Of a DNA stretch of 64,000 bases, positions 37,901 through 40,900 are shown piece by piece. The stretch comes from Escherichia coli. Lineage in GTDB: Bacteria; Pseudomonadota; Gammaproteobacteria; Enterobacterales; Enterobacteriaceae. The position numbers were made by a program. The stretch is taken from NCBI RefSeq assembly GCF_044324875.1, contig NZ_CP172185.1; one strand, given 5' to 3'. Position 1 is the first letter of the stretch; each line of letters opens with the position of its first letter.

Positions 37901-40900
37901 CAGTTTTGGTGGAAAGGTCTTTGGCTTTCGACTGGATATAAGCAAGAGACGGGCGCAAACCAAAGTCGAACTGATACTGTGCAACTACAGCGAAATCTTC
38001 AGTTTTATTGGCTACACCGTTGTAGCCGCCGGGCGAGTACTTGATTGCGCGGGTATTACGTGTTTCACCATAAGTGGCTGCCAGGTACAGATTATTCGCG
38101 TCATATTTTACGCTGGTAGCCCACTGTTCAGCTTTTTTACCTTTACCAAAAGTCGTCGCTTCCTGTGCATTGGTGCGATCGGCTGCACCATATGCAGCTA
38201 CAAAACCAAAGCCTTCATATTCATAACTGACAGAGCCGCCAACACCGTCGCCGTTTGAAGTGCCTGCATTGTCACGCTCATTTTTACCCAGATACTGAAC
38301 CGCAAAGTTCAGTCCATCAACCAGACCGAAGAAGTCGGTATTACGGTAAGTGGCAACACCACCTACACGACCCACGAAGAAGTTATCCCCGTTAACAGAA
38401 CCAGGCCCAAATTCAGGGAGGACATCAGTATAGCTTAATGCGTCATACACCACGCCATAGTTACGACCATAATCCAGAGAGCCAATATTTTCTAGTTTCA
38501 GGCCAGCGTATGCCAGACGGGTTTTGTCTCCTGCAGAGCCATCTTTTTCTGCCTTGTTGCCTTTGAATTCATATTCCCATTGACCAAAACCAGTTAACTG
38601 ATTGTTGATTTGGGTTTCACCTTTGAATCCAAGACGGGCATAAGTTCCATCACCTTCTTCTTTGGCGTTAGAAGAAAAGTAATGTTTACCCACTACTTTG
38701 CCATATAAATCCAGTTTATTACTGTTTTTATTATATATTTCTGCTGCATTTGCAGACATTGCCAGAAATACTGATGCTGCTACAGCAGAAAGTGCCACTG
38801 TTAAATTTTTCATTTTTTATCCTCTGGTGGGAGTTAATTGGACGACAAAATGCTATCAGGATGAAAATTTAATTTCTGTGTATAATGTATACAAGGAAAA
38901 TTAAGGAGTCCGATTCTTTATATGTGACCACCATCACAAAATAAGAAGTCATGCAAGCTAATAAATAGATGGCTATCTTTCACTCAAAAAATTAAGATCA
39001 ATCTTTTTTATTAGAAGTGCTAAATATATTTAATTATTTGGGGTTGTGAGTTATTTATATAACCTTAATAAAGACATTACTTTTGAAGAAAAATACGTGC
39101 ATAGAAGAATGCATAATCTTTAATTACATCTTGCCAAGCGTCGCAACAATCCAGAGATTGTATGTGGGGTGAATCATGCAGCATGCAGGGTATGAACAAA
39201 CACTTTACGATCGTAAAAGTATGCATATCATGGTAAGAGTGGTTCCTACGCCACACAACTTAAACCCGCAGCCAGGCGGTTTTTTACATCGAAAATCTGC
39301 ACCGGACATTAAGCTCTTTGGCGGACCAGATAAGAGGTGCGCTTAGTTGGGTTTGTCGGGCTTTCTCTGAGATTTGCGGTATTAATCCCGTAACGTTATT
39401 ATGCTGCTCGAGGCCCTTTAGCTCAGTGGTGAGAGCGAGCGACTCATAATCGCAAGGGCGCTGGTTCAAATTCAGCAAGGGCCACCAACCGCTACTAGCT
39501 CATCAGGAAAGAGCGTCAACCCTTTAAGTTGAGTGCGCTAGGTTCGATTCCCCGCTGGCGGTCCAGCGCCGACTTACCTCAGTCGGCAGAACAGTTTAGT
39601 TGTAACCATCAGGCCACCACTTCAATTCCGGTAGTCGGCACTAAATTTCCAAGCTCGTGCTCACGGCCTGCTTCATATCCGCGCCAGGTCCGTCGCGATT
39701 AAACCACAGGGCTTTTCAGGAGGGGCCACAGAGAGCGTCACACTGACCATTCCCTGTGGCTTGTGCTGAGATCCGGTCAGTGAAATTGTGCAAAGGGAAT
39801 CTTCGGGAGCTTTGGGCAGAATGTCAGTTATTGATGTTGACATCCTCCACACCCTGAAGGTCGGGGTTTTACGGCGCACTGGATAAAATACCTGAACAAA
39901 CAGCCTCTTCGTGCGGCTTTTTTATAACGAGATTCTGACTTGCTGCCGTCCGTAATGTCGGATGGCGGAGGTGAGGGACTATGAGAATGGACGAACGATA
40001 CAGTAACGCTGCATACGGCAGCGCAGGACTTGTTGCGTTCTTTGCCAGCCTGTCACTGCAGGATTGGGGATTTATTATCGGCGTGGCGTTCAGTATCATT
40101 CTTGGCGTTCTTACTTATCGCCTTAACAAACGGGAGCAGGAAAAACGAACCCGCATATTGCTCGAAATTCTGGAACGAACTAATGCCGGTAATGTTCCGG
40201 CTACGGCACATGCTGTGGCTGAGATTGCGAAAAAGGCACCAAAAGAAATATGACGAATATCCCGGGAGTGAGGGGATAATATACCTTTTAACAAAATCCG
40301 GGAACATGAAACGCCCGGAACGTTTCATGAGGCATGCCCCGTGGGGAGCAGGGCATAACTGTGCGGAATAGCTTTCATTGTGATATCAATAATCACGGTA
40401 TTCAAAATATTACGGGCCTGTGGGATCAGGTTGTTTTTTGTCTGATTCCAGAGGGAAGGGACGCTGTTTCGGTTCTCTGAACTTTAGTGATAATGAATTG
40501 AAAATCCTCATTTTTTGCTGCCATGCATAATGTCTGTCCCATGAACAGGGGGGGCTCAATTCTTCATTCACCCATGCGTTAATATCTTGTTTCAGGTGTT
40601 GAAGCATACGGGGTGTTAATGCACTCATAATAATATCCAGCGTTTTATGCGAGAGTTTACCGTAAGGGTCTGCAAGGATGCTGCTCGTTGCTTCGTTATT
40701 ATCCACCATAAGTGGAAGTAGCGCTGATTTAACTTTTTCTGTCATTAGTTGCAAAAATCTACTGCGCAAATTTTCTTTACTGTTCATTTCTGAAGCCTCA
40801 TCTGTTGTCGTTTGGTTTTCCTGAACGGGTATGTTTATGAGACATGCTGGTACTGGATTATATACCTGATATATCCAGGATTATAAACCTTTAGATCCTG

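Follow-up and report, generated by a model that had tools for sequence, protein, structure and literature searches.

A probably empty cargo slot behind the tRNA genes of a mosaic lambdoid prophage at the mlrA site of Escherichia coli

In a stretch of 64,000 nucleotides of the Escherichia coli contig NZ_CP172185.1 (assembly GCF_044324875.1; the whole stretch is referred to as the window), we analyzed positions 39412-39980, which lie in a prophage between the gene of the antiterminator Q and the holin gene. With a probability of about 0.8, this region represents the tRNA array and the moron slot of a Q-driven late operon in a mosaic lambdoid prophage integrated into mlrA, the slot being empty and the region being of recombinant origin. 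By analogy, the region belongs to the family of lambdoid late operons that depend on Q and should work like the late regions of 933W and DLP12. Such regions are already known, as near-identical modules are present in E. coli genomes of RefSeq and stx-negative mlrA prophages have been described (PMC3874044, PMC10657854).

Recombinant origin and contents of the late region

Two long alignments meet inside the array. Positions 36500-39679 are 98.5% identical to the mlrA prophage of the chicken E. coli LH50-c, and positions 39381-43000 share 99.4% identity with a prophage of E. coli 24A16CRGN010, the Q of which is of an unrelated lambda type and which lacks the porin. The sequence does not differ from LH50-c up to 39471, and differences from 24A16CRGN010 are sparse after 39458, which maps the crossover within the tRNA-Ile gene, between 39459 and 39492. 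The same recombinant tRNA-to-holin module is shared by E. coli Ch1. Judged from these alignments, two prophage lineages of E. coli were recombined in the region and joined inside tRNA-Ile, and homologous exchange with a crossover in this conserved gene would have generated it.

The left part of the late region starts with Q (37092-37526, plus strand), which belongs to the Q933/QuuD family. It shares 103 of 141 residues with 933W Q (73% amino acid identity, E 4e-78) and matches phrog_79, 'anti-termination protein Q-like', and thus the match to the 933W antiterminator reported in the first-pass annotation was confirmed, although at the level of the sequences it is family-level relatedness and not identity. 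The nucleotide homology to 933W ends at 37482 within the 3'-end of Q and resumes at 39194. The intervening 1.7 kb are an insertion relative to 933W, which comprises an insertion sequence (IS) end, a terminator and a porin gene. The IS end is a left-end remnant of 50 bp from an IS609-like element of the IS200/IS605 family (37481-37530, plus strand); it is 88-90% identical to the terminal 50 bp beside tnpA/tnpB in three full IS copies (comparison sequences L010, L011 and L013). The last approximately 15 residues of Q are encoded by this remnant, which forms the left edge of the insertion. The terminator scan placed the terminator at 37550-37566, beside the porin. The porin itself is a moron of the OmpF/OmpC family with 367 amino acids (37710-38813, minus strand) that matched the NCBIfam models for OmpF (E 1e-156) and OmpC (E 1e-138), in both cases under the equivalog cut-offs. 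The Q-porin layout is also annotated in E. coli relatives, with the RefSeq labels 'quuD' and 'ompC'. The order of Q followed by a tRNA cluster therefore holds as first described, but the minus-strand porin and the late promoter pR', which had not been mentioned, intervene, and the porin insertion separates Q from its site of action at pR'. A composite transposon carrying the porin between two IS ends was considered and rejected, because the orientations of the ends do not match and the right-hand IS copy derives from the other parental lineage, which is devoid of the porin.

Late promoter, Q-utilization (qut) region and a first weak hairpin with a T-run occupy 39194-39285 on the plus strand. 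A promoter scan and homology identified pR' with the -35 box TTTACG (39204-39209), a spacer of 16 nt and the -10 box TATCAT (39226-39231), and the hairpin is located at 39265-39285. The segment is 77% identical to positions 2657-2747 of the 933W sequence L003, in which pR', qut and the first terminator are annotated. Sequence comparison thus points to the combination of a Q933-type antiterminator with its cognate pR'/qut, including the same TTTACG-16-TATCAT promoter. The promoter of the tRNA genes, pT (39374-39402, plus strand; -35 TTGCGG, 17-nt spacer, -10 TATTAT), aligns with the annotated pT of 933W. In the Stx phages of strain Sakai, pR' is constitutive and is terminated in lysogens, and a mapped transcription start drives the tRNAs from a separate promoter (PMC7547250).

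Between the last tRNA-like sequence and the holin gene lies a gap of 337 bp (39644-39980). As had been noted for these roughly 330 bp, the gap is devoid of genes: it contains chance open reading frames (ORFs) only, all of 68 amino acids or less, and the five ORFs in or overlapping it had no PHROG match except an artefact, phrog_1925 (E 0.0036), which stems from a 52-bp repeat that is annotated as a coding sequence in some phages. RefSeq annotates no coding sequence in the gap of copies with 99.7% identity. From left to right, the slot would contain a decayed terminator (T1), a cargo leader of about 90 bp, an orphan stretch and a miniature IS of 52 bp, followed by a second terminator-like hairpin (T2) and a hairpin with the ribosome binding site.

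T1 (39651-39676, plus strand) is degenerate, with a weak stem and an interrupted T-run, and it was missed by the terminator scan. Alignments to 933W, LH50-c (L006) and the prophage sequence L152 characterized it as the homologue of the terminator directly upstream of the stx2 promoter in 933W. A MAFFT alignment had hinted at the remnant of a fourth tRNA gene (Gly) in this place, but this was rejected as the bases align better to T1 of the three sequences. The leader remnant (39682-39770, plus strand) was recognized by alignments to 933W and to prophages with a TerB-domain gene. Its first approximately 20 bp match 933W between the terminator and stxA2, and its full length of approximately 90 bp matches the stretch that precedes a gene for a TerB-domain protein (143 amino acids; PF05099, E 2.8e-12) in other prophages. 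A quasi-palindrome of 34 bp within the remnant (39726-39759) is inverted relative to L152 3246-3281, and flipping it raised the local alignment score from 56 to 91; the inversion looks like a hairpin flip caused by template switching. The quasi-palindrome is flanked by CCACAG(R)G and C(Y)CTGTGG. An upstream copy of the motif is co-changed (GGG versus GAG), so that long-range complementarity is kept in both versions. The following 66 bp (39771-39836) are an orphan stretch, for which no homologue was found outside the near-identical E. coli copies.

The 52-bp element (39837-39889, minus strand) was defined by its copies and by the ends of full ISs. It is built of a left-end flank, one hairpin and a right-end tail that ends with TCAA. 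Its two halves match opposite ends of full IS200/IS605-type (IS609-like) elements, which makes the repeat a miniature of that IS with a single hairpin and no genes. Copies with 90-94% identity are present in HK97 after tfa (L007, 1501-1552), in 933W within 'L0135' (L008, 1568-1620), beside nleD, and upstream of hok/mok on IncI2 plasmids (L009, 2001-2048); a further copy is located in L012 (1501-1552). The element was found in 786 of 5,426 complete E. coli genomes. It also occurs in 128 phage records and on numerous plasmids, and its contexts, at least six, are unrelated to one another; it may be mobile. In some phage records, it is included in an annotated hypothetical protein. It resembles IS200/IS605 and PATE-like elements in combining the outer flank of one end, an imperfect bulged hairpin and the tail of the other end, with TCAA 10 nt past the hairpin; we take this end geometry to be that of IS608. 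Unlike full IS200/IS605 elements, it has neither tnpA nor tnpB and contains a single hairpin, in which the copy of the window carries two substitutions. In the window, the family is represented by the two ends at 37481-37530 and 39837-39889 only, and no transposase ORF was found.

T2 (39892-39924, plus strand) is a weak terminator-like hairpin with a 4-bp stem and six T residues, and its predicted fold (-5.3 kcal/mol) is close to expectation (z -0.14). Alignment to LH50-c revealed its homologue as the second post-tRNA terminator of that prophage. There, T1 directly abuts T2, and the window thus has an insertion of approximately 205 bp relative to LH50-c.

Near-identical full-length spacers are present in 19 complete E. 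coli genomes, all with at least 99% identity, and the hosts listed are mostly chickens and humans. Among these 19 full-length matches, none represents an empty site, in which the 52-bp element would be missing from the same spacer. In 79 of 80 relatives of the holin in viral contigs, homology starts at or after 39959, about 20 bp from the holin start codon, and the possibility that the spacer is conserved together with the holin was rejected on this basis.

In related prophages, the slot is filled in different ways. In 933W it contains stx2AB. LH50-c has no cargo, but intact Ile-Arg-Thr tRNAs, T1 next to T2, and a class II holin. The mlrA prophage of AF14 has a late region like that of 933W, but stx2AB and the 3' half of argO are replaced by a TolA-like ORF, which is followed by nanS-p; the sequence becomes homologous to 933W again 46 bp after stxB, at the STnc100/AsxR region and nanS-p. 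A lipoprotein of 142 amino acids, named TolA by RefSeq (L005, 18176-18604), takes the place of stx2AB and of the 3' half of argO in an mlrA prophage of a bloodstream E. coli isolate. Prophages of the L152 type have the TerB-domain gene in the slot (L152, 3329-3760, 143 amino acids), and this gene is a pseudogene in L135, L143 and L187. The comparison suggests that the conserved tRNA genes and terminators act as linkers for the swapping of late-region cargo modules.

To the right, the slot is bordered by the holin gene, the first gene of the lysis cassette (39981-40253, plus strand; 90 amino acids; phrog_1350, E 3e-29), which is followed by the endolysin and Rz/Rz1 genes. The holin starts with MRMDERYS and thus contains a Met1-Arg2-Met3 dual-start motif; M-[KR]-M was found in every distinct N-terminus tabulated from the 80 holin relatives. 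In lambda S, which has the dual-start design, the choice of the start codon is set by an upstream hairpin named 'sdi'. Folding of the window sequence predicted a 10-bp hairpin (39943-39971, plus strand; stem-loop 39943-39968), whose 3' arm covers the Shine-Dalgarno (SD) motif GGAGG at 39967-39971, 9 nt before the ATG of the holin gene. For the identical sequence in L014, the pairing probability of the SD motif was 0.99, a value reached by 4 of 100 shuffled sequences, and many of the holin relatives also fold a hairpin over the SD motif. RNAalifold yielded no consensus structure upstream of the holin, with a MAFFT alignment that failed to register the stems. By analogy to lambda, the hairpin is a candidate for an sdi-like control element of the dual-start holin. 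Two morons are found in the cassette: an ORF of 125 amino acids of unknown function between holin and endolysin (40410-40787, minus strand; phrog_1853), and an ORF of 126 amino acids with a TonB C-terminal domain after Rz/Rz1 (42487-42867, plus strand), which the PHROGs label spanin-like.

Intact and degraded members of the tRNA array

The first-pass annotation had described three tRNA-like sequences behind Q, two of them with imperfect stems and possibly decaying. ARAGORN called two tRNA genes, namely tRNA-Met/Ile2(CAT) at 39412-39487 and tRNA-Lys(TTT) at 39489-39565, whereas the third sequence was missed by ARAGORN and was recovered by Rfam as a match below the threshold. The array is homologous to ileZ-argN-argO of 933W, but it does not consist of three intact tRNAs, and both suspected cases proved to be damaged.

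The first gene (39412-39487, plus strand) encodes a tRNA-Ile2 with the anticodon CAU and an encoded CCA end. It is almost the same as ileZ of 933W, and its homologue is annotated as tRNA-Ile by RefSeq. Its Rfam score is 67.8 bits, well above the gathering score of 29 bits for RF00005. A lineage-specific C-to-T exchange in the T stem, which changes a G-C to a G-U pair, was observed, and homologues score 72.5-73.6 bits. The tRNA is apparently intact, and on sequence grounds tRNA-Ile2(CAU) is the sole member of the array that looks functional.

The second sequence (tRNA2; 39489-39565, plus strand) is a degraded 'tRNA-Lys'(UUU) and represents an allele of the argN family. The anticodon loop reads CCUUUAA, which results in the anticodon UUU preceded by C33. 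With 31.2 bits it passes the Rfam threshold marginally, compared with 40.4 bits for the Lys allele of Escherichia phage PhiR47_1 and 50-57 bits for Arg alleles. There are two mismatches in the T stem and one in the acceptor stem, and relative to the common sequence and to L001 it carries six more substitutions that weaken these two stems. In the anticodon stem, a compensated change from G-C to A-U distinguishes it from the Arg(UCU) allele of otherwise 98%-identical modules (L014). Phage 'tRNA-Lys'(UUU) genes with C32-C33 that stem from the argN/Arg(UCU) family are widespread: the Lys(UUU) anticodon arm was found in at least 120 viral contigs, and in 92 of 120 the array is Ile2-Lys-Thr-Gly. The exact variant of the window occurs once among the 120 viral contigs (L094-L213).

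The third sequence (tRNA3; 39568-39643, plus strand) is a pseudo-tRNA-Thr(UGU). Its Rfam match (39568-39640) reached 19.8 bits (E 0.97), whereas the intact homologues of LH50-c and PhiR47_1 score 61.9 and 73.8 bits, respectively. Two pairs of the D stem and three of the five pairs of the anticodon stem are broken, the T stem is also broken with G53 changed to C, and the 3'-end is CTA instead of CCA. The same form is fixed in the module lineage, as it is found in L001, L002 and L014. As judged by these changes, tRNA3 is a pseudogene. Since the intact homologues score 40-57 bits for tRNA2 and 62-74 bits for tRNA3, both window copies are degraded.

The anticodon order of the window, CAU, UUU and (pseudo) UGU, differs from CAU, UCG and UCU in ileZ-argN-argO of 933W. 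By sequence, the two arrays are homologous in position and backbone, but carry different alleles. Codon usage was compared between prophage genes and the host genes in the window. ATA is used at 6.1-10.4 per 1000 codons in prophage genes versus 2.5 in host genes (2.4- to 4-fold), and AGA plus AGG at 7.5-14.8 versus 1.9 (4- to 8-fold). AAA is not enriched in prophage genes and is not rare in host genes. Codon compensation fits the Ile2 tRNA and the lost Arg(UCU) tRNA, but not a Lys tRNA.

The toxin question and competing explanations

The region had been proposed to lack toxin cargo before the holin, and this was corroborated. A tblastn search with StxA2 and StxB2 against the whole window gave a best E value of 0.66 and no stxA or stxB; accordingly, neither gene lies between Q/pR' and the lysis genes. 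A blastn search (word size 7) of 933W 21371-25829 against the window yielded nothing. The accessory elements of the stx neighborhood in 933W, i.e. nanS-p, STnc100 and AsxR/AgvB, are absent anywhere in the window according to Rfam and blast searches. As the toxin genes were tested for and are absent, the prophage is not an Stx phage. Homology to 933W fades at approximately 39700-39705, about 30 bp before the position of the stxA2 start codon, and downstream of approximately 39705 there was no match to stxAB, STnc100/AsxR, nanS-p or the 933W holin.

The description as an stx-less relative of Stx phages holds in part. Q, pR'-qut, pT, the tRNAs and T1 are homologous to 933W, and the integrase is that of Stx1 phages, but the right module derives from another lineage with an unrelated Q, and heads, tails and replication are those of other phages. 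The alignment to 933W that had been suggested as a check reached to within about 30 bp of the stxA2 start, but it gave no stx remnant beyond. For the proposed reconstruction of gain or loss of stx, the site is not well suited: it is no clean empty site for stx, neither pre-insertion nor post-deletion, as the leader remnant belongs to a TerB cargo and the right flank to a different holin module.

We consider it very unlikely that the gap is the scar of a deletion of stxAB, with or without neighboring cargo, from a genuine Stx-converting phage. Such an origin would be in line with the homology to 933W that passes the terminator and continues for about 20 bp, to about 30 bp from the stxA2 start position, with the Stx1-phage type of integrase and insertion site, and with the IS-derived 52-bp element in the gap, as such elements often go with deletions. 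However, no remnants of stxA, stxB, nanS-p, STnc100 or AsxR were detected at any sensitivity tried, and the sequence past the shared flank is homologous to the leader of the TerB-domain gene and not to stx. In addition, the holin module is of another family than the 933W holin S (tblastn E 0.28) and travels with an unrelated Q in other E. coli, and the same spacer is shared by the 19 genomes mentioned above, mostly from chickens and humans. Similarly improbable is that the spacer specifies a functional regulatory RNA, either a small RNA (sRNA) or a cis-acting leader, which would arise by read-through from pT or pR' and end at T2, like StxS, AsxR or AgvB. Stx phages do encode sRNAs in this region, T2 is followed by a T-run, and one local hairpin stands out (39715-39765, z -2.3), the outer helix of which, CCACAGGG/CCCTGTGG, is kept as CCACAGAG/CTCTGTGG in L152-type relatives with both sides changed. 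Yet this hairpin coincides with the DNA quasi-palindrome that occurs in both orientations, which argues for template switching rather than for selection on an RNA, and the minimum free energy of the whole spacer is no better than that of shuffled sequence (z -0.74). At gathering and at permissive thresholds, Rfam reported tRNAs only: StxS, AsxR/AgvB and IsrK families were not found at gathering score in the window, and the best match, isrK (16 bits, cut-off 50, E 2.7), is a chance match, as are Plastid-ycf2 (antisense to a tRNA) and L20-leader. The 3' part of StxS, which ends 258 nt downstream of pR' in the Sakai phages (PMC7547250) and comprises 74 nt, has no counterpart in the window, where the homology to 933W ends at 39285 with the first hairpin. 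Beyond near-identical E. coli, the spacer is also not conserved with the holin, with 79 of 80 relatives matching from 39959 on.

The tRNAs allow for another explanation, in which the Lys(UUU) and Thr(UGU) genes are diverged but functional and replace host tRNAs that are cut by PARIS AriB or by PrrC. The PARIS nuclease AriB mainly targets Lys(UUU) and Thr(UGU); its cleavage site is U36AAUC|A41, and the tRNA-Lys of T5 is protected by changes at positions 39 and 41 (PMC12409363). In the window, tRNA2 reads U36-A-A-G39-U40-U41 with an unusual C33, and around the AriB site, at positions 39-41, the Lys allele is unlike the host tRNA; moreover, the Ile2-Lys-Thr-Gly array is kept in the 92 of 120 viral contigs, and codon compensation fails for the Lys tRNA because AAA is not rare in host genes. 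We nevertheless regard functional copies in the window as most improbable. They carry extra, purely destabilizing changes (31.2 versus 40.4 and 19.8 versus 73.8 bits), tRNA3 lacks G53-C61, most of the anticodon stem and the CCA end, G39 and U41 go back to the Arg(UCU) allele instead of being specific adaptations, and the intact phage Thr(UGU) of PhiR47_1 retains the AriB site UAAUC|A. That the array as such, in the at least 92 prophage contigs, is a counter-defense module rather than a device for codon compensation, with a decayed copy in the window, is unlikely. If true, changes of the anticodon loop would have turned a phage tRNA-Arg(UCU) into the Lys allele, and the decay of the Lys and Thr genes in the resident prophage would reflect relaxed selection after the phage ceased to infect new hosts.

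The favored reading, an empty moron slot in a Q-driven late operon, implies the following course of events. By homology to 933W and lambda, pR' (39204-39231) would be a constitutive start for RNA polymerase, and in the lysogen transcription from it would stop at nearby terminators. After induction, Q would load at pR'/qut and would presumably act on this pR' as it does in its relatives. The Q-modified polymerase would read through the tRNAs, T1, the spacer and T2 into the holin-endolysin-spanin cassette and then into the structural genes, while pT would produce the tRNAs independently. T1 and T2 probably terminate weakly, and the hairpin over the SD motif may tune the ratio of holin to antiholin via the choice of the start codon.

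Several observations weigh against parts of this reading. The terminator scan detected no strong intrinsic terminator between pT and the holin, and the silencing of the holin in the lysogen is therefore not explained by the model. The -35 hexamer of pT matches at 3 of 6 positions, and this promoter was recognized through homology alone. Some function may be left in tRNA2, as it exceeds the Rfam threshold and its CCA end is still encoded. Pairing of the SD motif in 28 distinct holin relatives was not above that of composition-matched shuffles (mean z 0.49). Finally, the available sequences fit both with cargo that was lost from the slot and with cargo that was never there.

Attachment site and relatives of the prophage

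To the left of the prophage, the window carries the E. coli host genes pbpG-dld-bglX-osmF-yehYXW, and the prophage extends from approximately 23.6 kb to the end of the window. The host flank (12000-22950, pbpG to yehW) had a best match of at most 98.8% identity among the 5,426 complete E. coli genomes; the source strain may belong to a lineage that is scarce among complete assemblies, or it may be a Shigella, which are left out of that collection. A Peptidase-S11 RNA motif (RF03039, 72.8 bits) at 13533-13613, directly upstream of pbpG, has the position that this known cis-regulatory family would be expected to take.

The host side of the attachment site is formed by a truncated mlrA (yehV) gene that lacks the first 28 codons (22933-23580, minus strand). 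The ORF covers residues 29-243 of the 243 residues of the MlrA model NF011617 (E 4e-145) and is flanked by yehW on one side and by a tyrosine integrase on the other. The integrase (23655-24941, minus strand; 428 amino acids) was recognized by tyrosine recombinase models and is of the yehV/mlrA-targeting type. The int-xis-attL DNA is 96-98% identical to VT1-Sakai (Sp15), BP-4795, YYZ-2008 and JLK-2012, with 96.4% for VT1-Sakai, in whose record a truncated yehV is annotated. The prophage thus combines an insertion in the 5' part of mlrA with an adjoining cognate integrase and excisionase, as is typical of the Sp15/VT1-Sakai type, and its placement at the site used by Stx1 phages in the first-pass annotation was correct. 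It shares the same mlrA truncation with this group, but unlike these phages it has early, late and structural modules from other lineages and no stx1. In stx-negative O26:H11 strains, a 648-bp truncated yehV lies beside yehW and an integrase (PMC10657854), and prophage insertions in mlrA are known, some of them in stx1-negative strains (PMC3874044).

The replication region resembles phi467 and Fels-1, with an additional phiP27-like stretch, and the head and tail genes are 93-94% identical to phage 21 and lambda-like phages. Owing to these affiliations, the phage is, by sequence, not especially Stx-phage-like outside the shared late and int modules.

The late order of 933W is Q, pR'/qut, tR', pT, ileZ argN argO, terminator, stx2AB, nanS-p, and S R Rz. 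The window has in common with it the Q family (73% at the amino acid level), pR'/qut (77% at the nucleotide level), pT, a near-identical ileZ, a second tRNA, and the post-tRNA terminator with about 20 bp beyond. It differs from 933W by the porin and IS end between Q and pR', by the lack of the StxS 3' part and of any methylase remnant, by the replacement of argN by the Lys(UUU) allele and of argO by a dead Thr(UGU), by the lack of stx2AB, STnc100/AsxR and nanS-p, and by a holin of another family. For DLP12 of E. coli K-12, we take the layout to be quuD, nmpC on the opposite strand, and essD rrrD rzpD, and the lc porin of PA-2 presumably is a comparable case. With this layout, the window shares a QuuD-family Q, an oppositely oriented porin moron of the OmpC/OmpF type and the lysis cassette, whereas its porin is intact, tRNAs follow the porin, and the 90-residue dual-start holin is unlike the S21-like EssD.

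Close relatives are mlrA prophages of strains that are not Shiga toxin-producing, namely LH50-c (NZ_CP100500), Ch1 (NZ_CP127316) and AF14 (NZ_OZ546925), with identities of 91-98.5%. Common to them and the window are the insertion site and integrase, the replication module with helicase and toprim, and the order Q-porin-pR'-tRNA. Unlike the window, AF14 contains an IS1, the TolA-like ORF in place of stx, and nanS-p. PhiR47_1 has the Lys(UUU) allele with C33 and a homologous Thr(UGU) in the same position between Q and holin, with 88% identity over the array, but it has four intact tRNAs (40-74 bits), including Gly, before holin S, and a different spacer and holin.

The mlrA gene is disrupted by this prophage, and inactivation of mlrA has been tied to the loss of curli and of biofilm formation (PMC3874044). 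Toxin-free forms of the mlrA-integrating backbone are in wide circulation among E. coli from chickens and humans. For comparisons of the stx site, prophages of the AF14 type are better suited, as their TolA-like ORF exactly replaces stx2AB between argO and AsxR/nanS-p. With regard to the evolution of Stx phages, the region analyzed here shows that the variable cargo slot has its left border no more than a few tens of bp away from the stxA2 start. It represents a worked example of the assembly of lambdoid late regions, in which the contents of the slot, be it toxin genes, a TolA-like lipoprotein, a TerB-domain protein or nothing, are swapped among lambdoid prophages.

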